A stretch of DNA of 64,000 nt from Candidatus Bathyarchaeota archaeon (GCA_043826455.1 JBDRQD010000002.1:26181-90180), one strand, 5' to 3'. Shown: positions 656-64,000, counted from the stretch's first letter. The notes: generated by a model from the letters alone, not told the origin. Numbers and translations: made by a program.

Positions 656-828
656 CTCATCACGACAGAATTCAAGATCAGTATGTTTTCGGTTAGATAA
701 GACTTGCCCGGTCAAGCAGTCCCCGGCCGCGTTTCTACTCAATGGTTCAGCCGCCGCCTTGTTTTCTGTTTACCCGTCTGGGGGTCCCATCATTAACGTC
801 TTATAGACTCGCGGGTGAGTACAATCTG

Positions 829-1497
829 ATGGCTTTGTCAGGCGGGGTCTTGGCTGTGGTCTCTCACCCGGACGACGAGACCTTCGGGTGCGGAGGGACC
901 CTGGCCCTCCACGCGTCCATGGGCGTCCCAGTGAGCGTCCTTTGCCTATCCTGCAATCCACCGGGTAGACGTGGGGAGATCATGGGGGCAGCCGAGGAGC
1001 TGGGCGTCCCCGAGCCCGTGGTCCTCGATGACCTGAGCATCGCGCAGACCCCGGGCCTCATCAGGCGGGTGGCTGACCACATAGTGGCCGCTAAGCCCAA
1101 AGTTGTGTTGACTCACGTCCCCTTCGACTATCACCGTGAGCACAGGGCGACCTACGAGGTGGTGAAGGAGGCCGTGGAGTGGGCGGCCCACACCACTACC
1201 TACGATGAGCCCTGCTTGGTGGAGCGGCTTCTGCTGATGGAGGTGAACACGCTCATACCTAGCCCCCACGTACTGGTGGACGTGTCGGAGGCCATGGACG
1301 CGAAGAGGCGGGCCACCAAGCGGTACACGTCCCAGCTGGCCAAGTTCACATGGGGCTACTATGAGAGGTTCAACGAGAAGAAGGCCGAGCTCCGCGGCGT
1401 CCAGGGCGGCTGCTCCTACGCCGAGGCTTTCCAGGAGGAGCCCCTGGCCAGGAGCGGCCCCTTCTACCCGGTGAAGAGCGTCAGGAGCCTCCTCTGA
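829..1497 (+). CDS. bshB: PIG-L/LmbE family deacetylase, probable GlcNAc-malate deacetylase
   Basis: HPDDE and HxxH (HREH) motifs, YAEAF tail; lies in the bshC/bshA cluster; start trimmed to ATG 829. Confidence 0.75.
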   Translation: MALSGGVLAVVSHPDDETFGCGGTLALHASMGVPVSVLCLSCNPPGRRGEIMGAAEELGVPEPVVLDDLSIAQTPGLIRRVADHIVAAKPKVVLTHVPFDYHREHRATYEVVKEAVEWAAHTTTYDEPCLVERLLLMEVNTLIPSPHVLVDVSEAMDAKRRATKRYTSQLAKFTWGYYERFNEKKAELRGVQGGCSYAEAFQEEPLARSGPFYPVKSVRSLL

Positions 1498-1544
1498 GCC
1501 TCAAGGTTTAAACCGGCTCCGCGCCGTCTTTTCTGGGAGGAAAC

Positions 1545-2492
1545 TTGAATCTCTACGGGCTCAAGGTCATAGACTTCCACAGCCACTTCCCCGTCCAGAG
1601 GGGCGGCGGAGGGGGAGGCTACTGGCAGCGGGTGGTCGAGAAGTACGGGGAGGAGCGGGCCACCATCATCATCCAGAACAGCCGAAGGTACAGGGACGAC
1701 TGGAGGCGGATGTGGGGCTTCGAGGCTCCGGAGGAGGGGACCCACAGCGACGAGGAGCAGGCGGAGCGCTGGGTGGCTGACCTGGACGCCAAGGGCGTGG
1801 AGAGGGTGAACTTCGTCACCGGAGGCGGCAACGACAACCTGGTCAAGGTTGTGGCCATGCACCCCGACAGGTTCACTGGGTTCGCCCACCACGACCCCTT
1901 CAGCGAGGACGCGGCCGGTGAACTGGAGCGGGCCGTGAAGGATCTGGGCCTAAGAGGCTACAAGCTGATATCGTCGAGCCTGACTCAGCCGGTGGACGAC
2001 AAGTCGCTTTACCCCCTTTGGGAGGCGGCTGAGAGGCTGAAGGTGCCCGTGCTCATCCACTTCGGCGTCCTTGGGGGAGGAGGGGGCCCCTCCAGGGACC
2101 TGAGGAACATGGATCCGCTGACTCTGTGGGAGGTGGCCGCCAGTTTCCCGACGCTAAACTTCGTGGTACCCCACTTCGGGGCCTGTTACCTCCGGGAACT
2201 CCTTCAGCTGTGCTGGAGCTGCCCCAACGTGCTGATGGACACCTCGGGGAGCAACCAGTGGACCAGGTGGATGCCATACAGGCTGACCCTGGAGGACGTA
2301 TTCAGGAAGGCCATAGAGACGGTTGGCCCAGACAGGATCGTTTTCGGCACCGACTCCAGCTACTTCCCCAGGGGCTTTGCCCAGGAGTACCTGAGGGAGC
2401 AGCTGATGATATGCCGCAGCATCGGCCTGGAGCAGGGCACGGTTGAGAAGATATTCAGCGGGAACGCGGCCCGGCTGCTCAGGCTCTCTTGA
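1545..2492 (+). CDS. Amidohydrolase family protein (Amidohydro_2-like)
   Basis: DFHSH, PVLIHFG, VPHFG, FGTDS motifs. Confidence 0.88.
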   Translation: MNLYGLKVIDFHSHFPVQRGGGGGGYWQRVVEKYGEERATIIIQNSRRYRDDWRRMWGFEAPEEGTHSDEEQAERWVADLDAKGVERVNFVTGGGNDNLVKVVAMHPDRFTGFAHHDPFSEDAAGELERAVKDLGLRGYKLISSSLTQPVDDKSLYPLWEAAERLKVPVLIHFGVLGGGGGPSRDLRNMDPLTLWEVAASFPTLNFVVPHFGACYLRELLQLCWSCPNVLMDTSGSNQWTRWMPYRLTLEDVFRKAIETVGPDRIVFGTDSSYFPRGFAQEYLREQLMICRSIGLEQGTVEKIFSGNAARLLRLS

Positions 2493-2537
2493 AAGGTTTT
2501 TATGAGCTCCCTCTGATGTGCATCCTATAAGTGGGGC

Positions 2538-4262
2538 ATGCACTTGGAGAACACTGCGCCGGCGCACCTGATCTACAGCGACTACGTGGAGAAGGGATTG
2601 AGGGCGGAGCTGGCCCAGGCTCTTTGGGGGCAGATACCGTCCATCATGGGTGACGCCTACGAGGCATTACCCAGGATTCGCTCAAAGTACGAGGCCTCCG
2701 CGGAGATCGAGGGCTTCAAGAAGGCTCTGAAGAACGAGATGAGGTCCATGGGGCTCCTCACGGGCCGGGTGGAGGCGAGCATCGACCGCTTGGACCGTGG
2801 CGTCGTGGAGACGGGCCAGCAGCCCATGTGCTTGGGGGGTCCCAGCCTGATCCTGAACAAGTTGGCGTACGCCCACAGCCTATGCGGCATGGGGGACCAC
2901 GGCTACGTCCCCCTATTCTATAACGCCGACTATGACGGTGTACAGGCCGAGCTGCTGAACATCCGGCTGCCTAGTCCCTCCTCGCATGGTTTGCTGCTTT
3001 CTTACCCGTCTGAGCTGGGTGACGAGGGTGTGCCCATCCGCCTGCTCCATAACCCGTCTGAGGACTGGTTTAGAAAGACTGTTGAGAAGATCGAAGGCAA
3101 CGTCAAGGGGATCATGAAGGGGGTGAACCAGGATGATCAGGAGAGGGTGGCTCAGAGGCTGAGCCACGCCCTGACCATCATCAGGGGCGCCTACTTCAGC
3201 ACTGGCAATGTGTCGGACTGGGCCGCCAAGACCCTGGGGATCATCATCAATTTGGAGGCCGACATGGGTGTGCCCGTGGTCTCCCCCAGCAAACCTGAGC
3301 TCAGGCCCTTCTTCCAGGATGGGTACGAGTTCCTTCTCTCGGAGCCCACCCGCAGCCGCTTCGTGGAGGCATCCAACAGAGCCGCTGAGCTGGTGGAGGG
3401 TGCCGGGTACAGGGCGCAGATAGGGTTGCGGGGCCGGGACTACGTCCCCTTCTTCCTGGAATGTATGACGCCGGGCTGCAGGCGGAGCCGCGTCGAGCTG
3501 AAGTACGACGCTGGTGTGGTTAAGGGGAAGTGCCCCAAGTGTGGGGAGGAGTACGAGTTCAGCTTCAACCCTGGCAGCCCCGACCTCACCGACATCATCG
3601 ACTGGATATCACCTAGAGTGGACTCTAGGCAGATCATAGTGGACTCTGTAATGCCCGTGCTGGCCCACGTGGGGGGCCCCGGTGAGACCAGCTACTACGC
3701 TGAGGTGATCCCCGCGGCCAGCGAGCTGGGTGTACCGTTCCCTCAGTACCTGCGCTACACCAGGGTCTTCTATAACACGCCGTGGAACGAGGCCGCCGCT
3801 AAGGAGGTGGAGGCCCTGGGCCTCCCGATGATCCTTGGCGAGGCCCTCTTCGCCGCCCTCGGGAAGTGGGTTGAGGCGCGTAACTCAGAGAACGGGGCGG
3901 CGCTGGCTGAGGCTCACAGAGCCATCCGGGCTTCCATTGATGGGAGCTTCGGCGCCCTGGTGGGCGAGGCTGAGAGGCTTCAGGGGGAGATCGAGGGCAT
4001 CAAGGGTCAGCTGGGCTCCGTGAAGGAGCGGGGGCCCCTCATCAGGGAGATGAGGGAGAAGCAGGGTAGACTCGGAGCCCTCGACCAGTACCTGTCCTGG
4101 GCCTACGGCAGGTTCAGCCCTGAGCGGTTCGGCCAGGAGGTCAGCTGGCACTGGCTGGACCTGGCCACGGTCACAGGCTTGGGGGACCTCATGGGGGTCT
4201 TCGACCGAGTCTATAACAGGTGGACGCCCAACAGCTCCGTCTACTTCGCCAACACGGGCTAG
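2538..4262 (+). CDS. bshC: Bacillithiol synthase BshC-like cysteine-adding enzyme
   Basis: ETGQQP, PLFYNADYD, GGPGETSYYA motifs, C-terminal coiled coil and ERFGQE (QER-like) segment, 574 aa; next to bshA. Confidence 0.82.
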   Translation: MHLENTAPAHLIYSDYVEKGLRAELAQALWGQIPSIMGDAYEALPRIRSKYEASAEIEGFKKALKNEMRSMGLLTGRVEASIDRLDRGVVETGQQPMCLGGPSLILNKLAYAHSLCGMGDHGYVPLFYNADYDGVQAELLNIRLPSPSSHGLLLSYPSELGDEGVPIRLLHNPSEDWFRKTVEKIEGNVKGIMKGVNQDDQERVAQRLSHALTIIRGAYFSTGNVSDWAAKTLGIIINLEADMGVPVVSPSKPELRPFFQDGYEFLLSEPTRSRFVEASNRAAELVEGAGYRAQIGLRGRDYVPFFLECMTPGCRRSRVELKYDAGVVKGKCPKCGEEYEFSFNPGSPDLTDIIDWISPRVDSRQIIVDSVMPVLAHVGGPGETSYYAEVIPAASELGVPFPQYLRYTRVFYNTPWNEAAAKEVEALGLPMILGEALFAALGKWVEARNSENGAALAEAHRAIRASIDGSFGALVGEAERLQGEIEGIKGQLGSVKERGPLIREMREKQGRLGALDQYLSWAYGRFSPERFGQEVSWHWLDLATVTGLGDLMGVFDRVYNRWTPNSSVYFANTG

Positions 4263-4852
4263 TCCCCGTGCCGCTTCCTGAGGGGCGGGGAGAGCCTCAC
4301 CATGGTGAGCATTCGCTCGAATATGTCCACCCACTCGGCCATATCGGCCTCCAGGGCCCTCGGGCTGAGTACGCCCTGGGGCTGCCCTCGGCCTATCTCC
4401 CTGGACGCCTTGGCCCTGTAGACTGTGACTAGTCTGTCTCCGAAGCGGCCCACCTCCCAGAAGTCCTCTGTGAGGAAGATCACCATGGGCACTCTGAGGG
4501 CGCCGAGGATGCGCAGCTCGTCCTGAAGCTCCTCCGACGCCTCCCGGTCAATGACCCTGAGGTGGACCCTTTCACCGGCTGTGTCAGCCAGCTTATTGAG
4601 CATGGGGCCCTGCCTGGCGCAGTCGCCGCACCAGATGCCCCCGTACATGAGGACGTTGAGCTCCCTGTCCCAGCCCTGGAGCCGCTCCTCCTGATCCGGT
4701 GTGAGTTCGGGCAGTCGCTCCGCGTTCTCCCTCCACCTTGCGGCTTTCTCCTGGTCGGACTCGTCGATGAAATCGTCGTAGGGCTTGGCCATGTTGAAGT
4801 GGCGCTTCCAGAACTCTGCCCTCTTGTCGTAGTAGGTCGGATTCTCGGTCAC
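4259..4852 (-). CDS. Thioredoxin family protein (WCGDC, Thioredoxin_9-like)
   Basis: GIWCGDC motif, cis-Pro region RVPMV. Confidence 0.85.
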   Translation of the reverse strand: MTENPTYYDKRAEFWKRHFNMAKPYDDFIDESDQEKAARWRENAERLPELTPDQEERLQGWDRELNVLMYGGIWCGDCARQGPMLNKLADTAGERVHLRVIDREASEELQDELRILGALRVPMVIFLTEDFWEVGRFGDRLVTVYRAKASREIGRGQPQGVLSPRALEADMAEWVDIFERMLTMVRLSPPLRKRHGD

Positions 4853-4885
4853 ATCGAATTGGATTGAGGCCGCACCATATATTGG

Positions 4886-5992
4886 TTAGCCTGTGACCCG
4901 CCTGTAGACGTCCAGGTACTGCTGCACAACCTTCTCGGTGCTGTAGCGCTCCACCACGGTCTCCCGTGCCGCGGCCCCCATCCTCTTCAGCTTCTCCCTG
5001 TCGCCGTGGAGCTCAAGTATCTTCTCTGCTATGTCCTCCGGGTGCTTGAGGGGCACCAGGAACCCGTTGCGGCCGTCCTCTACGATCTCCGGTATGCCGC
5101 CCACGTTGGTGGCTACCACCGGGAGACCTGTGCTCATGGCCTCCAGGATGGTGAGTGGGGCGCTCTCCGTCTCGCTGGGCAGCACCAGGGTGTCAACGCA
5201 TCTGAGGAGGTCCGGGACGTCGCTCCTGTAGCCGGTTAGAACCACGTTGCGGCGGAGGTCCATCTTGTCGATGAGGCGCTCCACCCTGTGCCTCTCGGGG
5301 CCGTCCCCGATGAGCATCAGCTTGGCCTTGGGCGCCGTCTTGGTGACCATGCACATGGCGTAGACCAGGTCGTCCACCCTCTTCACGGGCCTGAAGTTGC
5401 TTACGTGGGCAACGACGATGTCCCGCTCAGGCTGCTCCATGAGCTCGCAGGGGGCCGGTGAGTAGACCTCTGTGTCCACGAAGTTAGGTATCACCTTGAT
5501 CGCGTTGTTGATCCCCAAGTTGTTCTTGGCCTCGTCGGCCATGAACCTGGAGACGGCTGTCACGGCGTCGGCCTGCTCCACGCTGAAGGTGTTCACAGGC
5601 TCGTAGCTTGGGTCGCTTCCCAAGATGGTGACATCGCTGCCGTGCAGCGTCACCACGTAGGGCTTCCCTGTGAGGCCCCTGCTCAGGTAGGCGGCGGTCG
5701 CGTGAGGGATGCTGTAGTGGACGTGGAGGAGGTCTAGGCCACGCTTCACGGTGACGCGGCTCATCTCGCTGCCCAGGGCGATGGTGTAGGGAGGGTACTT
5801 GAAGAGGGGGTACTCTAGGACGCTCACCAGGTGAACGTACACGTTCTCCGGGTCCACCCCCTGGATGGCCACAGGCCGCTCATATGTGATAAAGTGGGCC
5901 TCGTGGCCCCTCTTGGCGTACTCGACGCCCAGCCTTGTGGCCAGGATGCCGCTGCCCCCCACCGTGGGGTAACATGTTATGCCTATCCTCAA
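4886..5992 (-). CDS. bshA: N-acetyl-alpha-D-glucosaminyl L-malate synthase
   Basis: MRIGITCYPTVGGSG, YPLFKYPPY, HVHYSIPHA, TLHGSD, HVSNFRPVKR: near-diagnostic BshA signatures. Confidence 0.95.
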   Translation of the reverse strand: MRIGITCYPTVGGSGILATRLGVEYAKRGHEAHFITYERPVAIQGVDPENVYVHLVSVLEYPLFKYPPYTIALGSEMSRVTVKRGLDLLHVHYSIPHATAAYLSRGLTGKPYVVTLHGSDVTILGSDPSYEPVNTFSVEQADAVTAVSRFMADEAKNNLGINNAIKVIPNFVDTEVYSPAPCELMEQPERDIVVAHVSNFRPVKRVDDLVYAMCMVTKTAPKAKLMLIGDGPERHRVERLIDKMDLRRNVVLTGYRSDVPDLLRCVDTLVLPSETESAPLTILEAMSTGLPVVATNVGGIPEIVEDGRNGFLVPLKHPEDIAEKILELHGDREKLKRMGAAARETVVERYSTEKVVQQYLDVYRRVTG

Positions 5993-46070: not shown

Positions 46071-46592
46071 CTACATGCCCACGCCGGGTGTCCTGTACCG
46101 TTTCTCCCACTCGGCCCTCATGACGATGTCCCGGGGGTCCCTGAGGTGGTCGCTGCACACCACGCCGTCCAGGTGGTCGATCTCGTGCTGCAGCAGCTCG
46201 CTCATCCCGTCCCGGAACTCTTCCACGTGCTCGCCGCCCAGCTCATCAAGGAAGCGTACCCTGATGGCCTTGCTGCGGGGTATCTTGACGAAGAAGGCCG
46301 CCTCCAGGCTGAAGCAGCTGTCCCACACCTCGAAGGTCTCGGCACTAATCCACTCCACCACCGGGTTCACCAGGTAGAAGCTCCTCTCAGGCATCTGGAC
46401 ATAGACGACGCGCCTCCTGTACCCGATCTGGGGCGCAGCTATGCCACGGCCCATGCCATAGGTCTCCTGATGCCTTGTTAGGGTGTCCTTAAGGTCCAGG
46501 AGGATGGGTCTCAGCTCGTCGAGGTCCTCCACGGGCTCGGACCTCTCCCTCAGCCTCGGGTCGCCCAGGAGGACGGTGTCTCTCACCACCAT
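46071..46592 (-). CDS. def: Peptide deformylase family protein
   Basis: GIAAPQIG, DSCFS (EGCLS variant), QHEIDHLDG. Confidence 0.88.
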   Translation of the reverse strand: MVVRDTVLLGDPRLRERSEPVEDLDELRPILLDLKDTLTRHQETYGMGRGIAAPQIGYRRRVVYVQMPERSFYLVNPVVEWISAETFEVWDSCFSLEAAFFVKIPRSKAIRVRFLDELGGEHVEEFRDGMSELLQHEIDHLDGVVCSDHLRDPRDIVMRAEWEKRYRTPGVGM

Positions 46593-54307: not shown

Positions 54308-54565
54308 CTACTTCTTACTGCTAAGGTAAGCGGCTATTGGGAGTATCACACACATGAAGAACGCCGAGGATACCGTAGTCCCGGCCTCGACGCCCCACGT
54401 GGGTATAACCACAAACTCGTTGACGGCGACCGCCAACACGGCCAGGGCGATGACCACGGGCGCAGCCCTATGCATCCCCAATCCGCCTCTCCTCACATGC
54501 GCGACGTAGGCGGCGCCCATCAACGCCACCGCGACACCGATTGCCCCTATTATCCAGACACTCAC
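54308..54565 (-). CDS. Small three-TM membrane protein
   Basis: Hydrophobic; GTG overlaps stop of the Xre gene. Confidence 0.65.
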
Positions 54566-54774
54566 TCTTTCTCACCTCCCTCGTCGTCCCACAGAAAAAG
54601 CTCGTCGATGGTGGCGCCCAGAGCCACGGCCACGTCGTGAGCCAGCTTCAGAGACGGGTTGTACTTGCCCGCCTCCAGGTAGACTATGGTCTCCCGCCTT
54701 ACCTTAACCCTCTTGGCCAGGTCCGCCTGAGTCATGTCGTGGCGGGCCCTCAGCTCCTTTATCCTGTTTCTCAT
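54562..54774 (-). CDS. Xre family HTH regulator
   Basis: [31 protein letters not shown]; start trimmed to ATG 54774. Confidence 0.92.
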
Positions 54775-54784
54775 GAGGCCACCC

Positions 54785-55120
54785 CTAAGTGGCTTCCTTG
54801 CGGTTGAAGTATGTGTAAAGGACGATGTAGCCAACGCTCATGAGGATGACCGCCGAGTTGATGACGGGCATAGAGCCCATCTCCTCCAGTCCCTGGAACT
54901 CTATGCGGTACATGTTGTAGAAGTTGAGGAGTATAAGGTACCATGTCCCCAGGTTGAAGGCAACCATCGCGGCCTTGCCCTGTATCCTTACGGTTCTCTC
55001 GTCCTGGAGAGGGAACCCGCTCCTCCTCTCCTTGATGGTTCTCCACAGCGAGTACGCCCCTATCGTCACTATTAGGAGCGCTACAATGGGTATCGCCGTT
55101 ATCCAGATGGTTTCAGCCAT
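54785..55120 (-). CDS. DUF2178-like membrane protein
   Basis: TM-DERT..I..KA-TM-TM pattern; adjacent to Xre gene. Confidence 0.75.
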
Positions 55121-55195: not shown

Positions 55196-55265
55196 TGATC
55201 TATTTAAGGATATTGGAAAAACGACAAGCGCCCTCAAACAGAGATGGGTCACAGAAGGCTAGGCT

Positions 55266-55382
55266 CTACTCTCCGGGAGGCGCCGCGACCTCACTGTGCT
55301 CCTTCTTGATGGTCACCTTGCCGCGTTTCAGCTTCCTCTTCTTAAATGAAGGGAAGAGGCCCTCATCCTTCTTATCAGACAA
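55266..55382 (-). CDS. Candidate Pup/UBact-like small protein modifier, 38 aa, C-terminal Gly-Glu
   Basis: Manual translation MSDKKDEGLFPSFKKRKLKRGKVTIKKEHSEVAAPPGE*; TTG start, GGGAGGT 6 nt upstream, 2 bp after the ligase-family gene. Confidence 0.72.
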   Translation of the reverse strand: MSDKKDEGLFPSFKKRKLKRGKVTIKKEHSEVAAPPGE

Positions 55383-55384
55383 TT

Positions 55385-56962
55385 CTAGACCTCCCTGTCA
55401 CGCCTCTCGTGGTCGTCCACAGGCTTGAACACTAGGTGGCCCCCAGTCCTGTTAAGCTTGTCTAGTGCGGCCGTGAACTCCATGAAGGTCCCAGCCGCTT
55501 CCTCAAGAGCGTCTCCACACATCTGCTTGTTGAAGATGAAAGGCTCGTCCAGGCGTATGGTGGCATTGTGGAAGTTTATCCTCTCCCACTCCACGGAGCT
55601 CAACATGCCGGGAAACTCCCTGGCCACCAGGCACCTGATGTACTCCCTGGTGCCCTCGGGGCCGCTCATCGTGGCGCGGGTCACCTTCTCGGGAAGGCTG
55701 TCCCAGTCCTCCCACGGGGCAGCGTCCCTGGCGAAGGCCAGCGAGTCATCGAGGCTGAAGGTCGTCTGGGTGTCCTCGGGGGCCTCGCCCAGGTACTGGA
55801 GGACTTCCCCGTCGAGGAGGGTGTACTGGTTGCAGATGCCTACGCCCTCCTCAAGGGCTCCAGAGTACTCCTCGATGAGGGCCTTCTTAGTAACCCAGTC
55901 GATGCCGTCGATGAAGTACTCCAGCCGGCGCTCCCCCAGGCCGTCTACCGTGGCCTGGATGAGGTTGAAGGCAGCCCTGTCAGCCTCATTGGGTGCTTCT
56001 TCGTCCATCATCTCCTCGATCCCGGCCAAGTAGAAGCCCTCAAGGATGTCGGCCAGGGCGTCACCGTGTCCGCCGCCCTCCAGGCGGACCTTCCAGTTGC
56101 ACTCCTCTGTGTCCACGGTCAGCTCCTTCATGGCGGCCACAGGGTCCGCCAGCCTCGGGGGGCTACCGTAGTAGCCTTTCTCGTAGGCCGTCATCACAAG
56201 GGTCTCCAGGCAGTCCCTGAGGTATACCTGGTAGGGGCTCCTGAGGCCCTCCCAGTTGATGTCGTGAAGCCTCCAATACTTCTCAGGGTCGGCGTGGGGG
56301 TCATCCCTCTGGTTGAGGATGCCCCTGGCGTCCACCGTGTCGTTGGACGACAGCCGCTTCACGAAGGCAGCCCTGGGGCTGATGACATAGCGTAGGCCTT
56401 CTCCCTTCATCACTTTCCCCGGTCGCGGAAGTGAACCGTCGCCTTTGCAAGGAACGTAGTCGCCGCCGCCGGTGAGAGGTATGCGGGCTACCATGAAGGG
56501 CGCCAGGGCTTTCTCAAGCCTGTCCCAGACCTGGGGGTTGCAGACCCTGCGGCTCATGAGTATGCTGGAGTGGGTCGAGTAGGAGACCGCCCTCCACTCC
56601 CCGTCTGCTCTGATGTTAGAGACGTTGTTCTTGTAGGCGTTCACGCCCCGGAAGTAGCTCTGGAGGCCCCTGGCCGCGTAGAAGCCGAAGAGCTCGGCCA
56701 CCTTGTCGTAGACCACGGCCTCCATAGGTGTGTTGTAGCTGGGGGAGGACAGCTCCAGGTGGCTCATGTCGTCGTAGACCCTGAAGCTGTTGTAGGCCAG
56801 GTAGTCCAGGCGGGGCTCCTCCACCCTTATGGAGGTCACGTACCCGGCCCGTCTCAGCTCCTCTATGGCCATCCCCACCAGGTGCACCAGGGAGCCGTGG
56901 GGGAGCTGGGGCCTGGTGTTCATGGCCAGCTCGTGTTCTACTCCCCGAATCTTGCTCTCCAT
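55385..56962 (-). CDS. Pup ligase/deamidase (PafA/Dop) family protein, paralogue 2
   Basis: GVEHE, VYDDMSHLELSSP, DKVAE, YKNNV, RGILNQRDDPHAD..Y.RLH, IDWVTKK; start trimmed to ATG 56962. Confidence 0.85.
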   Translation of the reverse strand: MESKIRGVEHELAMNTRPQLPHGSLVHLVGMAIEELRRAGYVTSIRVEEPRLDYLAYNSFRVYDDMSHLELSSPSYNTPMEAVVYDKVAELFGFYAARGLQSYFRGVNAYKNNVSNIRADGEWRAVSYSTHSSILMSRRVCNPQVWDRLEKALAPFMVARIPLTGGGDYVPCKGDGSLPRPGKVMKGEGLRYVISPRAAFVKRLSSNDTVDARGILNQRDDPHADPEKYWRLHDINWEGLRSPYQVYLRDCLETLVMTAYEKGYYGSPPRLADPVAAMKELTVDTEECNWKVRLEGGGHGDALADILEGFYLAGIEEMMDEEAPNEADRAAFNLIQATVDGLGERRLEYFIDGIDWVTKKALIEEYSGALEEGVGICNQYTLLDGEVLQYLGEAPEDTQTTFSLDDSLAFARDAAPWEDWDSLPEKVTRATMSGPEGTREYIRCLVAREFPGMLSSVEWERINFHNATIRLDEPFIFNKQMCGDALEEAAGTFMEFTAALDKLNRTGGHLVFKPVDDHERRDREV

Positions 56963-57053
56963 CAACCTCGTGTCCTCGAAACTGGGCGAATGGCTTCCAT
57001 GGGGTGATACAGTCTTTAACACTTACTACTGGCGAAATCATGCTTCAAGCCGG

Positions 57054-58430
57054 TCAGAGCTTGGCCTCTATCTCCGCTATCTTCCTCTCAATCTCTTGGC
57101 TTGTCCAGCCCCCCAGGGAGTTGAACTCGAAGGCGGGGTAATGTATCTCCGGCCTCAGCTTCAAGTGGGACCAGCTTATGGTCTTGACGTTGTCCCTGAG
57201 CCGCTCAGCCAGGGCCACCCTGAGCCTGCCTCTGCTCTCAAAGGGCGGCTCATTAAAAGCCCTCTCCACGTCGTCCTCGGACACCACAGTCTTCAGTCCG
57301 CGCCTCTCCACCAGCTCCTCGTAGAGGGGGTCCGTGACCGCCGTGTATTGAAACAGGGCAGCCTCCTTGGCGGCTTCAGGCCCCAGGCCCTCCTCCAGTT
57401 CGAACTCGTCCAGGCCCTCCTCGGCAAGCCTCTTCTTGATGACCCACTCGACGGAAGTGTCCAGGCTCTCTATATGGCCCTCGTCCAGCTTTCCCAGGAC
57501 CCACTTGAACATCCGCAGCGCCTCAAGGTCGTGGTCCCCCGGCTCGGCCTCCGAGAACACCTTCTCGACGGCGTCCAGATAATACGTGTTCAGGTAGTCC
57601 ACAGCCTTCATTCTTCCCCCGTCGGCCAGCGGGACCTCCCAGTCTCCCCGGAGGTTCATGGACATTACCTTGTTGGACTCGATGGGGTCCAGTACTTCGG
57701 GCACATGGGTGAGGTGCCCGGCCTCCAGCGCCTTGAGGACGTAGCCCGTGACGCTGTGCTTGAGGAACGTGGTGAGCTCCGACCTGGCCCCCTCTCCGTT
57801 AACTATATGCGCCCTCACATAGCCGTCCCCGGCGTGGGGCTCGTCCCGGGTGCTGACGATGGGGTAGTCGGTGCTCACCTCGCTGTAAACCTTCTTGGGG
57901 AAGATGACCCTGGGGCTCATCATATAGACTCCGTCCATGATCCCACCTGCTCCGCAGAAGACCTGCCTGAGGATCAGGTACGGCACCAGCAGGCTCTGTC
58001 CCTTGAGGTAGCTGCTCCTCTCCACCAGGTAGTTCTCGTGGCTTCCCACCGTAGTGTACCGCCGCTCACCCTTGGGGTCGGCGGCGATGTTAGTCTTGTA
58101 CAGGTGCACCAGCTGCCCCTTCTCCTCCTCGTGGGCCCACGAGGCCAGCCGGGCGTAGGCCTCACACGCCTTGTCGTAGGCCACCAGCTCCAGCGGGTTC
58201 CTGCACTCAGGGGTGCAGGCCTCGAAGAGGTTGGAGTGGACGTAGCAGAGGCCGCCGTTTCGTAGGAACGCCCTGGGCACGCCGTCGTCGGGCTTGAACA
58301 CGTATGCCCCCTTCCTCCCCAGGGCCTCGAAGAGCTCCACGGGCCGTGAGCCCGAGGCGTACTCCTGCTCGGCGCCCTGCCACAAGTCCAGAGACAATGG
58401 TACCCTGAATCTGGGCCCCGGATGCCTCAT
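57054..58430 (-). CDS. Pup ligase/deamidase (PafA/Dop) family protein, paralogue 1
   Basis: GAEQEY, FLRNGG, E..TPEC, DKACE, GSHENYL, RQVFCGAG, PIVSTRDEPHA, EWVIKK, PP..SRG.LR; start may be TTG 58397. Confidence 0.92.
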   Translation of the reverse strand: MRHPGPRFRVPLSLDLWQGAEQEYASGSRPVELFEALGRKGAYVFKPDDGVPRAFLRNGGLCYVHSNLFEACTPECRNPLELVAYDKACEAYARLASWAHEEEKGQLVHLYKTNIAADPKGERRYTTVGSHENYLVERSSYLKGQSLLVPYLILRQVFCGAGGIMDGVYMMSPRVIFPKKVYSEVSTDYPIVSTRDEPHAGDGYVRAHIVNGEGARSELTTFLKHSVTGYVLKALEAGHLTHVPEVLDPIESNKVMSMNLRGDWEVPLADGGRMKAVDYLNTYYLDAVEKVFSEAEPGDHDLEALRMFKWVLGKLDEGHIESLDTSVEWVIKKRLAEEGLDEFELEEGLGPEAAKEAALFQYTAVTDPLYEELVERRGLKTVVSEDDVERAFNEPPFESRGRLRVALAERLRDNVKTISWSHLKLRPEIHYPAFEFNSLGGWTSQEIERKIAEIEAKL

Positions 58431-58496
58431 ATAATTTGCGATCCGGGCGGTACGAGCCGTTAAATAATTACGGTAAATACATACAACTGTGGTTTT

Positions 58497-60206
58497 ATGG
58501 CGGGAAAGGTGCCGGACGAGCTCTTCGCGGACCTGGTCCTAGTGAACGGGAAGATCGTCACAGTGGACAAGTACGACACCATAGCGGAGGCCGTCGCGTG
58601 TAAGGGAGAGAAGATCATCAAGGTAGGCTCCACCGGTGAGGTGCGGGCCTACGCAGGCAAGCACACCAAGGTCATCGATCTTGGGGGGAAGCTGGTCACC
58701 CCGGGGTTCGTGGACACCCACGCCCACTTCAGCCACGGAGGCAGACGCGTCAGGACCGTTGACCTCCGCTACGTGCGGAGCATGGACGCCCTCATAGAGG
58801 AGCTGAGGAAGAAGGCCGAGGCTACGCCCGCGGGCCGATGGGTACAGGGCTACGGGTACAACGAGTCCAAGCTGAAGGAGAAGAGGTTCCCCAACAGGTA
58901 CGACCTGGACAAGGCGTCCACGGATCACCCCATCTCGGTGACACGGCAGGGGGGCCACGACGGGATGAGGGTCAACAGCCTGGCCCTGGAGCTGGCCGGC
59001 ATATCCAAGGACACCCCGGACCCGGAGCCCCCGTCCCTCATCGAGCGTGACCCAGAGACCGGGGAGCCCCTGGGCAACCTCCGGGAGGAGGCCGAGAAGC
59101 CGGTCCAGGACCTCATGGCCAAGGAGCCCCCCGTCACACGGGAGGAGATGAAGGAGGGTATACGGGACACCATCCGGCTGTTCCTGTCCTGGGGCATCAC
59201 CAGCCTCCAGGAGCCCGGCGCCCCCATGGACTTTTTACCCATTTACCAGGAGATGCTTAATGACGGCGAGTTCCCCATAAGGAACAGCTTCCTGATAGCG
59301 GCTCCCGCCATGGGGCGATCGTACTACCGGAACGAGAGGTACCAGCTAGCCGTGGACATCAGCGTGGAGGCTGGGTACATGACCCACTTCGGCGACAGCC
59401 ACCTCAAGTTCGCGGGCATCAAGCTTGGCCACGACGGCAGCATGAGCGCCGGCAACTGCGCCGTCTACGAGCCCTACCTCAACTACCCCACCCCGGACAA
59501 CTATGGCGTCGTCCACGGGTACACCAACGAGGAGCTGACCGACGGCAGGGCCCTCGCCGAGTTCGCCCCCCTGGTGGTGAAGCTACACGACGCGGGGATG
59601 AGGTGCGGCATAGGAGCCATCGGCGACAGGGGCATCGACTTCTTCCTGGACGCCATCGAGACGGCCCACAGCAAGAGCCCCAGGAAGGACGCCAGGCACA
59701 GCCTGGAGCACTGCAGCCTCCCTACGAAGAAGGGCCTGGAAAGGATGAAGCGGATGGACGTGACCAGCTCGACCTCAGTGGGCTTCGGCTGGGAGCTGGG
59801 GGACCAGCACAGAAGCTTCATGGGGATGGAGAGAATGAAGCGGTACATGCCCATGAGGAGCTTCAAGGAGATGGGCATAGTGGCCAGCGGCAACGCGGAC
59901 TGGCCCGTGTGCAGCGCTAATGTCGTGGAGGGCATCCACGTCTGCGTAAACAGGACCAGTGAGACGGGCCAGGACCTGAGCAGGAGCCAGGCCATAAGTG
60001 TAATGGACGCCATAAGGGTGTACACCTGGAACGGGGCGTACATCACCTTTGAGGAGGACATCAAGGGCAGCATCGAGCCCGGGAAGCTGGCCGACATGGT
60101 GGTTCTGGACACTGACATCCTTACTTGTCCCCCCGGGGACATAGTGAAGGCCAAGGCGCTCACCACCATCGTGGATGGCAGGGTGGTCTACCAGAGAGAT
60201 GGGTAG
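58497..60206 (+). CDS. Amidohydrolase_3 (YtcJ-like) protein
   Basis: PGFVDTHAH, NSLAL..AGI, KL..DGS, EH, KGSIEPGKLAD. Confidence 0.92.
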   Translation: MAGKVPDELFADLVLVNGKIVTVDKYDTIAEAVACKGEKIIKVGSTGEVRAYAGKHTKVIDLGGKLVTPGFVDTHAHFSHGGRRVRTVDLRYVRSMDALIEELRKKAEATPAGRWVQGYGYNESKLKEKRFPNRYDLDKASTDHPISVTRQGGHDGMRVNSLALELAGISKDTPDPEPPSLIERDPETGEPLGNLREEAEKPVQDLMAKEPPVTREEMKEGIRDTIRLFLSWGITSLQEPGAPMDFLPIYQEMLNDGEFPIRNSFLIAAPAMGRSYYRNERYQLAVDISVEAGYMTHFGDSHLKFAGIKLGHDGSMSAGNCAVYEPYLNYPTPDNYGVVHGYTNEELTDGRALAEFAPLVVKLHDAGMRCGIGAIGDRGIDFFLDAIETAHSKSPRKDARHSLEHCSLPTKKGLERMKRMDVTSSTSVGFGWELGDQHRSFMGMERMKRYMPMRSFKEMGIVASGNADWPVCSANVVEGIHVCVNRTSETGQDLSRSQAISVMDAIRVYTWNGAYITFEEDIKGSIEPGKLADMVVLDTDILTCPPGDIVKAKALTTIVDGRVVYQRDG

Positions 60207-60336
60207 CAGCGGCCGCGCGATAAAAAGGTGGAACGAGGCCGTTTGGAAAGGTTATTGGTTAGAGGTGGTGGGGCCGGAAGGATACACTTATTTAAGATGG
60301 CTTATTTCGCCTTTTAAGGGACTTATTTTGAGGTGT

Positions 60337-60687
60337 TTAAAAACTGCCTGCAGCTTTTCTTGTTTCCTTGGGGAACTCTTCAAGTAGCTTCGCAATGAAG
60401 CGTGATGCAAGATGTTCTTTGAGCTGCGTTTCGCTATATCTATGGTGGTATACACGGTGGTGGCCTCCCTTCCCCGTTCTCTCCTCGTAGTCCAGTATAC
60501 CGTTGTCCACCATGGCGTTGAGGCTATTGATGACACTGGCCCGGCTGATCAAGCCCTCAAGCTGCTCATTGGCATTCAGCCACACCTCTTTGCTCTTCGC
60601 GCCTTCCGGGACGGTCCACAGATAATTTAAAGCAAGTACTTGGTAGGGCTTGAAGAACATCTCGTAGCCTTGCTTCGACAGATCCAT
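60337..60687 (-). CDS. BlaI/MecI/CopY-like winged-helix regulator
   Basis: LNYLW, ISRASVINSLNAMVD.GIL, GKGG..RVY. Confidence 0.75.
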   Translation of the reverse strand: MDLSKQGYEMFFKPYQVLALNYLWTVPEGAKSKEVWLNANEQLEGLISRASVINSLNAMVDNGILDYEERTGKGGHHRVYHHRYSETQLKEHLASRFIAKLLEEFPKETRKAAGSF

Positions 60688-61076
60688 TTGGATAGAAAAG
60701 GCACGAGTCTAGATTGGAGTCCACTCGTCTACGCTTAAGTTAACTATCTCAGGTTAGATGTGAAGTTCGAACCCCACCCTCAGTGGAGATATCTCCCGCT
60801 GATTTCCCCTTTTTCATTTTGTCGTTTAAGGGTAGGCTTTTTGCCTGTGTTATGTATCAAAATGATATCAACTGAACCAACAAGTTACTAAGGCTCTCGA
60901 TCCGTGTCCTACAGGGTAGAGAGTTCAAGGCTCACCCAAACTCGTTGAAGAATAAGATCTACGGGCCATAGATAGAAAATTAAGCTATTTATCATATTTA
61001 TAGTAGGAAAATGATTGTTTTCTAAGCTCTTGTTGAGGGAAAGTGTGAAGAAAAATAAAACCAAGCTAACTGAAGC

Positions 61077-61292
61077 TTATACTTCTTCTCTCTCAAGACT
61101 GAGAAGGTGTTGATAGGCATCTCTGTTTCTCTCAAATCGTTTCATTAATTGTGCCCATTCATAGTCGCTGCTCTTTGTTCGAATTTGCCTTAATGATTCA
61201 CGGATACAGTCGAGATGCTCCATGTGCACATCTACAAACCGTTTATCCACTATCATCTTACAGCACTTGCAGACTTTTAATGTATCTGTCAT
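61077..61292 (-). CDS. Small hypothetical protein, possible Zn finger
   Basis: CxxC..HxxH..C pattern, 71 aa, in AT-rich region. Confidence 0.45.
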   Translation of the reverse strand: MTDTLKVCKCCKMIVDKRFVDVHMEHLDCIRESLRQIRTKSSDYEWAQLMKRFERNRDAYQHLLSLEREEV

Positions 61293-61557
61293 CGACTAGT
61301 GGATAAATTATAATAGACATAAATATTTTAATAATTATTTGTATGAACATTATTTACATCTATTTAATTTCCTAAAGTCATAGTGATATATAGGATAGGT
61401 CTTTAATTAAGAGTCAGATATAATACTAAGGACTAGCATTTAATGTCTAATATTTACACTGTATAAAAGAGAAATCACGTTTAATATAGATTATCGTAAT
61501 TGCCGAATTCATTCTATACGTGTCATACGGTATATTCATGCATAGCTAATTAAAGAT

Positions 61558-62301
61558 CTACATTAAAGTAACGTAGGATATCTGCCTAGACCGACCATCC
61601 ACATCGACCAAATCGTTCTTCTTCAAGAGGCCTAACAGCTTTTCGTTAGGAGCTTCAATAACAACATGTTCTCGGCCTTCAAGAAAATCGTATAACATAA
61701 TGGTTCCATATCCCTTGTTTCTATACTGAGGCGCGACGAATATTTGCCTAAGACAATGGAAAGACCCCTTCTCAAATATCTGTTGACTATTGGCTAGATA
61801 ATACCCTACAGCCTCCCCTTCAACCCACAATATTTTCCCATCCTGTAGTCTTGAGCTTAGCCACGCTCCTCCTTCCTCGTTGGCGCACGTCTTAAAGTAG
61901 ATGACAGCGAATAGGTCCTGCCTGTCATTGACCTTCAAGAGACCTTCTTTTCGCTCATTAAACAGTGCCTCTCGGCTCGATATCCACCGTCTTGTAAGTT
62001 TGACTGCAATTATTTTTTTACAAAAAGGACAAACGAGTTGTTGAATCTTGTACCGACTCATTATATTCCCAGAAGAGCAAGTTACGTCTTCACCGCAGTC
62101 TGGACAAACAATTGTCTGTACACGTTGTGTAATCCACGGCAACTTGGAGTCATCTTCGCCAAAGTCGTGACCACAGTAGTAGCAAATAAAACGATCAATC
62201 CCATCAACTCCTTCTGTTTTTACTAAGTATTCGTGTTTTTTTCTGCATTTTGGACATATTAGTAGTGGGAGGCGGGATCGTTTGAACTTAAGTGGGGACA
62301 T
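61558..62301 (-). CDS. Double zinc-ribbon plus GNAT acetyltransferase
   Basis: CPKC, CYYC, CPDC, CPFC then LRQIFVAPQYRNKGYG. Confidence 0.75.
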   Translation of the reverse strand: MSPLKFKRSRLPLLICPKCRKKHEYLVKTEGVDGIDRFICYYCGHDFGEDDSKLPWITQRVQTIVCPDCGEDVTCSSGNIMSRYKIQQLVCPFCKKIIAVKLTRRWISSREALFNERKEGLLKVNDRQDLFAVIYFKTCANEEGGAWLSSRLQDGKILWVEGEAVGYYLANSQQIFEKGSFHCLRQIFVAPQYRNKGYGTIMLYDFLEGREHVVIEAPNEKLLGLLKKNDLVDVDGRSRQISYVTLM

Positions 62302-62346
62302 ACTACATAAATATGGTCTATTGAGAGTGAAAAAATATTGTGGGGG

Positions 62347-62739
62347 CTAGGTTTCTAGTTTAGAGTAATATTTCGTTAGGACTCTGTCTGCTCTCTCTTT
62401 GGAGACGGTTCTGAAGGCCTCGTCGATGCTTTTCCTTGTGTGGAGGATGTTGACTAGCTCCTTTTTTGAAGAGACGACATTGCTCCATGAAGACTCAGGG
62501 TTCTTGAGTTTGCCTGTTCTTTTAGCTAGACGGATATATGATCTCTTTATCTCCTTTCCTAGGAGCGGTGATGTGAGGGCTTGGCTTAAGGTAAGGTTGT
62601 TCTTACGCATAGCTTCGGTAGCTGTTTCCAGGGCGGCGAGAACTGCTAGAGGTTTCTCACCTGCATATCTGTATGGGGCTCTGTTGGCGAGCTCGTCGAT
62701 GAAGAGTTCGATGATGTCAAGCTCTTGTTTTTCGACCAT
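62347..62739 (-). CDS. Hypothetical protein
   Basis: 130-aa ORF co-oriented with the GNAT gene, 45-bp gap. Confidence 0.6.
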   Translation of the reverse strand: MVEKQELDIIELFIDELANRAPYRYAGEKPLAVLAALETATEAMRKNNLTLSQALTSPLLGKEIKRSYIRLAKRTGKLKNPESSWSNVVSSKKELVNILHTRKSIDEAFRTVSKERADRVLTKYYSKLET

Positions 62740-62848
62740 GACACTATATAATTATTATCTGCTTATGAAATTAAATTGATTGGCGGATTGTCTTCTAAGG
62801 CGTAAATTTTTAGAGTATGTTCAGTCAAGGCTCCAAGCAATAGTCATA

Positions 62849-62963
62849 TTTTCTATTTTCGATCATAATACCCCGTAAAATGGTGTATTGTGACCAGAAA
62901 CAGAAATAATTATTAGCCGATGCGAAGATACTACCCCCTAGAAAGGGGTATAATGATCAAAAT
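62849..62963. promoter_or_regulatory. Two inverted repeats with 7-bp spacers upstream of abiEi
   Basis: Arms 62849-62874 / 62882-62907 (19/26 complementary); second TACCCC-N7-GGGGTA whose right arm 62945-62963 complements the first left arm at 16/19. Confidence 0.65.
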
Positions 62964-63765
62964 GAGTAACATCGAAAGCACCTACACGTGGCTGCTCCAG
63001 CAAAACACAGCTACAATCCAGGAAATCACAGAGCAATACAGGGAGCACAATGAGGCAGCCACAGCGAAATACGTCTACGACAAAGTGATCACTCCAATGA
63101 TCAGGCAGGGCAGAGCCCAGCGCATCCGCCGTGGCCTCTACACGGCGGTCGACCCCTTGACAGGGAAACCGGCTGCCGACTCCATAATAGTAGCCAGCAA
63201 ACTCAGGCCTGAGTACTACCTGGGTTACCACACCGCTCTAACCCTTCACGGGGCAGCATACAGCGCCTCCACGCAGACCCAGGTATGTGTTAAGCCCCGT
63301 GACAACTTCAGGGAGTTCAACATCGGCGGCAACACGATAAAACCGGTATACACAAGCGACACAGAGACCAGTATCCAGGCTCTCCGCTACCGTGGATACA
63401 GCGTCAGGGTCTGCGGCAAGGAGAGGCTCCTCATAGAGTGTCTCGACAAGCCCAAACATGTTGGGGGGTGGGAGCAGACTCTGAAGAGCTTGGAAACCTT
63501 GGGTGGCGTCGAGTACCAGCAGATACCGGGGCTGCTAAGGATGATCGGTAACCAGAAGCAGACACGCGTCACGGGCTATGTACTGGAGCTGCTTAGGCAG
63601 CACAGCGTCTACCACCGCCACCTCCCCGAGGACACACTGAATGCGCTTGAGGGCATGGTGGAGGGGCCGCCCACGTACCTGGTCAGGGGCGTCCCCGGGC
63701 CGCTGGACAGGCGGTGGAGGCTGTACATCCCTGAGTACTTCGCAGGCCTTCTCCGAGGAATCTGA
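62953..63765 (+). CDS. abiEi: Type IV TA antitoxin AbiEi family
   Basis: N-terminal wHTH RIRRGLY, YLGYHTAL..HG, ERLLIECLD.P...GG; start ATG 62953 or 62962. Confidence 0.88.
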   Translation: MIKMSNIESTYTWLLQQNTATIQEITEQYREHNEAATAKYVYDKVITPMIRQGRAQRIRRGLYTAVDPLTGKPAADSIIVASKLRPEYYLGYHTALTLHGAAYSASTQTQVCVKPRDNFREFNIGGNTIKPVYTSDTETSIQALRYRGYSVRVCGKERLLIECLDKPKHVGGWEQTLKSLETLGGVEYQQIPGLLRMIGNQKQTRVTGYVLELLRQHSVYHRHLPEDTLNALEGMVEGPPTYLVRGVPGPLDRRWRLYIPEYFAGLLRGI

Positions 63766-63766
63766 C

Positions 63767-64000
63767 GTGATAGGCTACGACATAAGGGAGCTCCAGTCAA
63801 GGTACCCCTACAGCCCAGCGGTGCTGGAGAAGGTGTGCCGTATAAGCGACTTTATGGCTCAGGTTTCAGTTATTCCGTTCCTAAGGGAGCACCTGTCCCT
63901 TTACGGTGGGACCGCCCTCAACTTCGTCCACCTCAGGCCGCCCCGGCGCTTCAGCGTTGACATAGACTTCAACTACCGGCACATGGGCGAGTCACGGGAC
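63767..64000 (+). CDS. abiEii: AbiEii/AbiGii nucleotidyltransferase toxin (runs off window edge)
   Basis: Manual translation ..VLEKV..LYGGTALN..RFSVDIDFNY; GTG 1 bp after abiEi stop. Confidence 0.9.
   Translation, partial: MIGYDIRELQSRYPYSPAVLEKVCRISDFMAQVSVIPFLREHLSLYGGTALNFVHLRPPRRFSVDIDFNYRHMGESRD

Follow-up and report, generated by a model that had tools for sequence, protein, structure and literature searches.

A candidate Pup-like conjugation operon with a very small putative tag in a Bathyarchaeia genome

Results and discussion

Two Pup-ligase-family genes and a tiny gene form a conserved trio

We identified three open reading frames (ORFs) running in one direction on the minus strand of a 64-kb stretch of the Candidatus Bathyarchaeota genome GCA_043826455.1 (JBDRQD010000002.1:26181-90180; the whole stretch is hereafter called the window), namely gene A, then gene B and then a peptide gene, which together span positions 55266..58430. 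The composition of this trio, i.e. two genes of Pfam family PF03136 and a tiny gene whose product ends in Gly-Glu, is confirmed, and we consider it fairly likely that these genes make up an operon for Pup-like conjugation in which the tag is new and very small. Gene A, the candidate ligase (57054..58430, minus strand), encodes 458 amino acids (aa) when read from ATG 58430; by homology, its true start is probably TTG 58397, which is shared with relatives and gives 447 aa. The longest ORF of gene B, the candidate deamidase or tag remover (55385..57022, minus strand), has 545 aa from GTG 57022, and homology places the probable start at ATG 56962, the Met of close relatives, which gives 525 aa. 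Both products match PF03136 far above the gathering cut-off of 25 bits (A, E 1.2e-70 and 239.1 bits; B, E 9.4e-48 and 163.7 bits) and are the only PF03136 matches in the whole host genome. The peptide gene, the candidate tag (55266..55382, minus strand; 38 codons from TTG), starts 2 nt beyond the stop codon of B; its GGAGG ribosome-binding site, as read from the sequence, falls in the terminal part of gene B and precedes the TTG by 7 nt (55390..55394, minus strand).

The product of the peptide gene, MSDKKDEGLFPSFKKRKLKRGKVTIKKEHSEVAAPPGE, is 38 aa long and has the C-terminus ...KKEHSEVAAPPGE. Scanning one genome per species yielded 28 loci with related genes. A homologous ORF directly follows B in all 19 archaeal loci that have readable DNA there, and seven loci could not be judged (B off the contig in three, 13 nt left in one, a 200-N gap in one, and no B in two). 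A scan of the phylum found PF03136 in 14 of 401 genomes; the peptide gene is present in 12 of the 13 genomes other than the host, and the thirteenth is cut inside B by the end of the contig. The small G[EQ]-ended ORF that the initial annotation had expected beside orthologues is thus conserved. Its start codon is TTG, ATG or GTG at the same aligned position between loci, and GGAGG or GAGGTG lies 6–10 nt before the start in the relatives' genes. The ratio of nonsynonymous to synonymous differences per site (pN/pS), pooled within each of three groups, was 0.19 among the 38-aa Bathyarchaeia genes (five sequences), 0.10 among the 32-aa genes (six) and 0.25 among the 31-aa genes (four); synonymous sites approach saturation (pS up to ~0.9). 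Because of this purifying selection and the ribosome-binding site, the ORF is read as coding, and on these comparisons it is a real gene linked to the enzyme pair and not a chance ORF.

A profile search of 5.8 billion proteins returned 135 hits at E ≤ 1. Among the matches listed, all 120 relatives end in [AS][PQ]PG[EQ], 69 of them in Gln and 51 in Glu; they carry only the name 'hypothetical protein' and no Pfam domain. The host genome has one copy of the gene. The peptide is basic and, in archaea, 27–41 aa long, with one conserved block near the N-terminus (L-[FP]-PSFK+K) and one at the C-terminus (K-K-E-H-x-E-V-x-A-P-P-G-[EQ]); H29, A34, P35 and G37 are invariant in the alignment.

The earlier proposal that the peptide is a Pup-like modifier stood with respect to its Gly-Glu end and the adjacency of its gene to the enzymes, and failed with respect to sequence. 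When nine peptides were searched, neither the Pup model (PF05639) nor the UBact model (PF20513) was matched at E ≤ 10, NCBIfam gave nothing relevant, and profile-profile alignment with hhalign against seven Pup-like proteins gave a probability of 0.1%; on these results, homology of the peptide to Pup or UBact was rejected. With its 38 aa, the peptide has roughly half the length of Pup. As a positive control, the Pup-like small proteins of canonical loci matched the Pup hidden Markov model (HMM) at 2.5e-20 and 3.4e-21, while in the control of the UBact model one bacterial protein matched weakly (0.016).

The module occurs patchily in archaea and in a few bacteria

The host is an archaeon, as initially annotated, and belongs to the Bathyarchaeia; its genome carries Ribosomal_S8e and four archaeal-type proteasome subunit genes. 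It also encodes two Cdc48-like double-AAA proteins, and the proteasome and Cdc48-like genes all reside on contigs other than that of the trio. Nothing in the genome exceeds the cut-off for PAN. No Mpa/ARC or 20S proteasome gene is present within the 64-kb window, in agreement with the reported lack of such neighbours, and the described host-like codon style holds as well, the G+C content at third codon positions (GC3) of A (0.856) and B (0.850) being like that of neighbouring genes.

The genome is a metagenome bin with an estimated contamination of 7.21%, and the window contains bacteria-like genes, e.g. BshA and peptide deformylase, both of which would suit an artefact, whether a chance ORF or a bacterial contaminant contig in an archaeal bin. 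We tested this explanation and rejected it as very improbable on the grounds of selection, composition and occurrence in other archaeal genomes. Purifying selection and the ribosome-binding site mark the ORF as coding. The trio-bearing contig is compositionally typical of its genome (tetranucleotide rank 20 of 59), and the GC3 of A and B matches that of host genes. The same trio is found in other archaeal genomes with 1–2% contamination, on contigs of up to 650,731 bp. Moreover, A and part of B lie on a single Bathyarchaeota contig of 2,302,760 bp (locus L059) that also carries archaeal-type proteasome genes; the end of B and the position of the peptide gene fall in a 200-N gap there, which makes this locus uninformative on the peptide.

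Within Bathyarchaeia, the distribution is patchy, with the module in 20 of the 401 sampled genomes. When the window's own genome is left out, 16 of 70 genomes in its family and 11 of 31 in its genus carry the module; all five genomes of a sister genus have it, and three other families contribute one hit each. The module is frequent in a family that belongs to another class (12 of 32 genomes), and the counterpart loci are labelled Methanomethylicia. Locus L061 is labelled Patescibacteria, probably wrongly, because five proteasome hits of archaeal type were obtained in its genome (G403). The A, B and peptide sequences of L061 are 61–63% identical to those of the window.

Of the initial description as an archaeal module, the archaeal host was upheld and the restriction to archaea was not. 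Two bacterial loci labelled Thermodesulfobacteriota contain A-like and B-like genes (34–40% identity) and, upstream of A, a homologous peptide gene (...RKLKKVHEEIIAPPGQ; L078:3421-3750 and L079:3416-3748), whose called forms have 48–64 aa and end in APPGQ. Two further genes (383 aa and ~140 aa, both without Pfam match) precede the peptide gene in these loci, and TctC/TctB genes follow the trio. No 20S proteasome was found in the two bacterial host genomes, one of which gives a lone, weaker hit to the Proteasome family (E 1.6e-26) that is probably HslV, and the other none.

A and B stand apart from PafA and Dop within the Pup-ligase family

The initial annotation had identified A and B as a PafA/Dop-family pair. 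Membership in the family, which has the carboxylate-amine ligase fold, is supported by PF03136 and by the predicted fold; orthology to PafA and Dop is not. The AlphaFold model of A is of high quality (predicted local distance difference test, pLDDT, 91.1; predicted template-modelling score, pTM, 0.92), and Foldseek retrieved Dop (4b0r, query template-modelling score, TMq, 0.83) and PafA (4bjr_B, from the PafA-Pup complex, TMq 0.82) ahead of GCS2/YbdK (0.48). The best sequence match in the PDB is Dop for both A (1.2e-36 vs 1.2e-26 for PafA) and B (1.9e-24 vs 3.6e-10). Against the NCBIfam equivalogs, A scores 191.6 bits for Dop (TIGR03688) and 173.8 bits for PafA (TIGR03686), and B, which leans to Dop, scores 137.9 and 93.0 bits, respectively. 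All four values are far under the equivalog cut-offs of 492.3 bits (Dop) and 551.3 bits (PafA).

Canonical references were drawn from a scan of the bacterial phylum of one related genome, in which 10 of 401 genomes have PF03136, nine of them with canonical-type genes. These reach 587.8 and 548.1 bits for Dop and 557.3 bits for PafA, or come near the cut-offs, and their loci have pup_AAA (Mpa) and Pup-like small proteins adjoining the enzymes, with pup_AAA next to Dop. Phylogenetic analysis of 46 sequences, including 15 canonical PafA/Dop references that all derive from this one phylum, was performed by a quick search under LG+C20 with Shimodaira–Hasegawa-like approximate likelihood ratio test (SH-aLRT) support; in the resulting tree, which is unrooted and has several long branches, A and B together with their bacterial relatives are split from all 15 references (SH-aLRT 99). 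The A clade and the B clade have support of 99 and 100, respectively. Constraining B to group with Dop was rejected in an approximately unbiased (AU) test (delta lnL 76.35, p 0.000257), which covered this grouping, named after the tree had been seen although the hypothesis itself was that of the initial annotation. B as an orthologue of Dop was rejected by the tree and the AU test, and A as an orthologue of PafA by the split in the tree. On this evidence, the A/B pair is a lineage of its own within the Pup-ligase family, with a separate duplication.

Active-site motifs suggest a ligase and a hydrolase

For the GhExE, strand-2/3 acidic, [HQ]x[NH] and [QH]x4D motifs we follow the definitions in the available excerpts of Iyer et al. 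2008 (PMC2588565), and the excerpts of a review (PMC3511204) name the catalytic-loop Asp as the proposed base or nucleophile in PafA and Dop. GhExE is kept in every A and every B sequence compared, as GAEQE in the window's A and GVEHE in its B. A keeps both Glu residues of strands 2 and 3 (LFEACTPE); we infer the placement of the hPE/TPE acidic residues on these strands. The strand-4 motif [HQ]x[NH], which contacts phosphate and metal, is HEN in the window's A and HES in distant A sequences, and the strand-6 motif is HIVNGE in the window's A and [HQ]x4E across A sequences, Q being found in distant ones, compared with Hx4D (HVIVGD) in the canonical references, which also have HEN on strand 4 (HES in one) and both the 'TPE' Glu and the catalytic Asp. 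The spacer between GhExE and the catalytic loop measures 34 residues in A of the window clade, which is PafA-like (33–49 residues in the PafA references, 68–77 in those of Dop), and 44–52 in A elsewhere. In the Y-x-D of the catalytic loop, His replaces Asp in all seven window-clade A sequences; A of the other clades has Asp.

B retains the first Glu (HLE), and Ser, Val, Ala or Leu takes the place of the 'TPE' Glu in all 15 sequences of the motif comparison. Its strand-4 motif is off [HQ]x[NH] in the window (HSS), other B sequences having HHS, HAS, HGS, HGC or HGN, and its strand-6 motif, HDINWE, is Hx4E where the references have Hx4D. The spacer has 46 residues in the window clade and 66–70 in most other clades. 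All 17 aligned B sequences have the catalytic-loop Asp65, and this position is Asp in 15 of 15 of the motif comparison set. Because of these motifs and the insertion pattern, and not through orthology, we assign A as the putative ligase and B as the putative hydrolase: A is probably an ATP-using ligase with an unusual base in the window clade, and B probably a hydrolase-type paralogue with a reduced metal/phosphate site that acts as a deamidase or tag remover.

The peptide is modelled in the groove of B

We modelled B (525 aa, 17-row alignment) together with ATP, Mg and the peptide (24-row alignment); B was folded in this complex job only, where the non-partner chains have a pLDDT of 91. The interaction prediction score from aligned errors (ipSAE) between B and the peptide is 0.83, 0.82 and 0.83, and the best of three controls reached 0.01. 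Among solved complexes, 116 of 157 attain the ipSAE mark, as do 2 of 215 mismatched pairs; these counts are only a rough guide here, our own alignments having been supplied and a ligand included. The runs share at least 82% of contacts, and the partner has a pLDDT of 70–72. Peptide residues 10–20 and 23–38 contact B. Residues 32–37 touch positions 13, 110, 115, 126 and 128 of the beta-sheet cradle, and the modelled interface takes in E11 and D65–H68 of B. The invariant H29 of the peptide contacts positions 375, 378, 379 and 382, a region in which N378 is invariant and C377 and Q379 are nearly so. The model supports a placement of the peptide in the groove of B with its tail at the active site. 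Because Dop-Pup and PafA-Pup complexes have already been solved, this pass indicates likeness to those complexes and is not proof that this copy binds.

A model of this kind supports binding and not turnover, and each paralogue has one non-canonical catalytic feature. Both points would agree with a peptide that serves as a regulatory or inhibitory ligand or as an assembly partner, with A and B acting on some other carboxylate such as free glutamate or the C-terminus of another protein. We regard this as quite improbable. The strict G-[EQ] end in 120 of 120 relatives among the matches listed, with Glu and Gln alternating, fits a substrate with a gamma-carboxyl or gamma-amide group and is not predicted for a mere ligand, and the model puts the tail at the catalytic loop and the strands of the active site.

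A proposed tagging route

The interpretation of the trio as ligase, de-conjugase and modifier is supported by the computational comparisons above. In the proposed route, the ribosome would make the 38-residue basic peptide, which would bind the substrate groove of the PafA/Dop-fold enzymes such that its H-x4-A-P-P-G-E tail reaches the active site. A, with its motifs for handling ATP, Mg and phosphate and its PafA-like architecture, would use ATP to activate the terminal Glu at its gamma-carboxylate and link this group to an amine, with the epsilon-amino group of protein lysines as the most likely acceptor. B would deamidate Gln-ended precursors, which are the more frequent form among relatives, or remove the tag, or do both; its putative hydrolase role draws on Dop-leaning HMM scores and insertion pattern, the retained catalytic Asp and the degenerate metal/phosphate motif. 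Tagged proteins may be regulated or may be delivered to Cdc48 and the 20S proteasome, both encoded elsewhere in the genome. In favour of a Pup-like conjugation system, the G[EQ] C-terminus is, by analogy, the signature of Pup-type tags as given in the available part of PMC2588565, and the linkage of enzymes and peptide spans archaea and bacteria.

Several observations weigh against it. The module is patchy even inside the genus (11 of 31 genomes) and is therefore dispensable. The peptide has no sequence relation to Pup or UBact, and at 27–41 aa the archaeal forms are shorter than any Pup described in the accessible part of PMC2588565 (50–90 aa). Because orthology of A and B to PafA and Dop was rejected, it provides no basis for transferring roles. 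A of the window clade has His in place of the proposed catalytic base Asp in all seven sequences and may work differently or be inactive, and B lacks two conserved acidic/polar motif residues (the 'TPE' Glu and HxN) and may differ from Dop in its use of nucleotide. The complex model may have been helped to pass by the structures already solved for Dop-Pup and PafA-Pup, and this model covers, of the two enzymes, B alone with the peptide. A role in degradation has no support, because no Mpa-like unfoldase adjoins the trio and the bacterial hosts of the module are without a 20S proteasome.

The broader proposal is a third kind of Pup-type tagging, which would operate in at least two archaeal classes (Bathyarchaeia and Methanomethylicia) and a few proteasome-less bacteria. 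In it, a deep branch of the Pup-ligase family with its own duplication would ligate a basic mini-tag of 27–41 residues with an APPG-E/Q end to protein lysines, and what happens to the tagged proteins would be independent of an Mpa-type unfoldase and either regulatory or directed to Cdc48/20S. To this proposal as a whole we give an even chance.

Neighbouring genes and a possible carrier function

On the sequence, a TTTTT run 45 nt past the stop codon of the peptide gene (55217..55221, minus strand) may be an archaeal terminator of the A-B-peptide operon, and an AT-rich element, TAATTATTTA (58461..58470, minus strand), in the 66-nt divergent intergenic region may be a TATA-like promoter element. 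The divergent neighbour on the other side of this region is an Amidohydro_3 gene (58497..60206, plus strand; PF07969, E 7e-91; 569 aa) that is conserved in this Bathyarchaeia clade. It stands directly upstream of A in 10 of the 11 window-clade loci with upstream DNA, at 74–88% identity, and is absent beside the trio in the loci of distant clades. A role in the system, e.g. as an amidase, is possible. The conservation of Amidohydro_3 exceeds that of A itself. In the annotated loci of Methanomethylicia and distant Bathyarchaeia, the trio has an NAD-epimerase gene and an operon for 2-oxoacid:ferredoxin oxidoreductase as neighbours. A fixed pathway partner was rejected, as neighbours differ by clade and none is common to all.

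These metabolic neighbours bring into view a different use of the same chemistry. LysW and ArgW are small ribosomally made carriers whose C-terminal Glu is ligated through its gamma-carboxylate to an amine with ATP, the product being released later by a hydrolase; the LysX-type ligases have an ATP-grasp fold, and LysW carries aminoadipate or glutamate for the biosynthesis of lysine and arginine, not proteins. The peptide of the trio could likewise be a carrier or precursor, with its terminal Glu ligated to a small-molecule amine, or could yield a peptide-derived metabolite, B then releasing or processing the product. An ATP-dependent gamma-glutamyl amide would again be formed on a small ribosomal Glu-ended peptide, and that the acceptor is a protein is an inferred part of the conjugation route. 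The neighbours cited above, Amidohydro_3 in 10 of 11 window-clade loci and the oxidoreductase operon in Methanomethylicia and distant Bathyarchaeia, the lack of an adjoining unfoldase or proteasome gene and of a 20S proteasome in the bacterial hosts, and the proposal, cited in the available portion of PMC3511204, that Pup arose from ribosomally made peptide metabolites are all in keeping with a carrier. We nevertheless consider a carrier or precursor rather unlikely. The neighbours vary by clade, so no fixed pathway travels with the trio, and Pfam showed no ATP-grasp ligase of the kind used by LysW systems among them. A and B are members of the only family for which ligation of a peptide to protein lysines is known, and the open active-site cradle of this fold takes diverse protein substrates, according to the same portion of PMC3511204. 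The Gln-ended pro-form and the second paralogue also mirror the logic of Pup, Dop and PafA, which favours protein conjugation.

Further genes were observed around the trio in other loci and in the window. A conserved protein of 95–99 aa that ends in EEKYEPPP is encoded after the trio in all 10 Methanomethylicia-type loci with enough downstream DNA (L031:7834-8133, L033:4080-4367 and L041:4998-5285, and also L030, L032, L035, L036, L038, L039 and L042); two of three tested have a weak match to a Molydop_binding-like barrel. The 2-oxoacid:ferredoxin oxidoreductase operon follows this protein in L031 and L041 and is convergent with the trio in the distant Bathyarchaeia loci L029 and L077. Directly downstream of the trio in the window (54562-55120, minus strand), a gene for a DUF2178-like membrane protein (E 0.00035, under the Pfam cut-off) overlaps one for an HTH_3 (XRE-type) regulator; the membrane-protein gene is beside the trio in none of the relatives examined. 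A peptide deformylase gene (46071-46592, minus strand; E 1.7e-25, under the subfamily cut-off) has a counterpart right after the trio in L063. Bacillithiol-type thiol biosynthesis genes are located at 742-5992, with BshA at 413.5 bits (cut-off 273.7) and BshB-like and BshC-like genes under their cut-offs. The G+C content of positions 60300-64000 is 0.43–0.50, compared with 0.60 for the window; this stretch, which encodes a protein that combines zinc ribbons with a GNAT domain (61558-62301), an AbiEi-like antitoxin-domain protein (62920-63765) and several family-less ORFs, may be an acquired island.

Implications

The literature searched regards pupylation as an invention of bacteria and attributes to archaea no tags other than those of the SAMP and ubiquitin types. 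Searches linked neither pupylation nor Pup or PafA to Bathyarchaeia, Methanomethylicia or other archaea; the 2017 UBact study and Iyer 2009 were beyond their reach. The sole co-occurrence of the terms was in PMC7203096, of which the accessible part has no passage on archaeal pupylation. In the excerpts available, Iyer, Burroughs and Aravind 2008 (PMC2588565) report no Pup or PafA in archaea, and two reviews, one of them PMC3511204, mention archaea only for proteasomes or SAMPs. A search for RNA sequencing runs retrieved none that holds the stretch and three metatranscriptomes of one study with next to none of it, which is no evidence either way. If the trio functions as proposed, archaea would have a second, chemically different route of protein tagging, and no fewer than three unrelated tag families (Pup, UBact and the trio peptide) would share the G-E/Q 'glutamyl handle'. 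The tag of ~30 residues would be minimal and potentially useful as a ligation tool, and the origin of the PafA/Dop family and its duplication would again be in question.

Comparison with known systems

The closest parallel is the Pup-PafA-Dop system of Actinobacteria (PF05639, TIGR03686, TIGR03688). In both, two paralogues of the same family and fold are encoded beside a small, probably disordered protein that ends in G-E or G-Q, the small gene comes immediately after the paralogue that is more like Dop, and the peptide is placed, in our case by modelling, such that it occupies the groove of the enzyme and its C-terminus reaches the active site. Unlike PafA and Dop, A and B are under the equivalog cut-offs and form a separate clade that apparently stems from an independent duplication; A of the window clade has His for Asp, and B is without the 'TPE' Glu and the HxN motif. 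The archaeal tag is unrelated to Pup in sequence, basic and not acidic, and has 38 aa compared with 61–82 aa in the reference loci, and the trio locus has no Mpa or proteasome genes and an archaeal host. UBact (PF20513) of Gram-negative bacteria is likewise a non-actinobacterial, Pup-analogous small protein with an E/Q end beside PafA/Dop homologues, but the trio peptide has no match to PF20513 at E ≤ 10. The UBact loci of Lehmann and colleagues (2017) reportedly carry Mpa and proteasome genes, whereas the trio locus has none.

SAMP, Urm1 and ubiquitin-like tags are beta-grasp proteins that are activated at a C-terminal Gly-Gly by an E1-like adenylating activity. The tagging proposed here would resemble them as a small-protein modification of lysines in archaea, and its chemistry and enzymes are unrelated to theirs. 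Unlike LysW/ArgW systems, the trio has no ATP-grasp gene nearby according to Pfam in the annotated loci. With the Plesiocystis and Rhodopirellula loci described in the available part of PMC2588565, the trio shares a Pup-ligase pair and a G[EQ]-ended tag unlinked to proteasome genes, which suggests a non-degradative use. Those loci are bacterial, their tags are Pup orthologues of 50–90 aa, and their ligases have four transmembrane segments, according to the same source; no hydrophobic insert was seen by eye in the alignments of A and B, for which no transmembrane prediction was made. Pup orthologues of 50–90 aa with a G[EQ] end are reported there from actinobacteria and a few other bacterial lineages, some in loci unlinked to the proteasome. 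Judged by its sequences, the module is best classed with Pup-type conjugation, to which it would add a new tag family, a new enzyme clade and a new domain of life.

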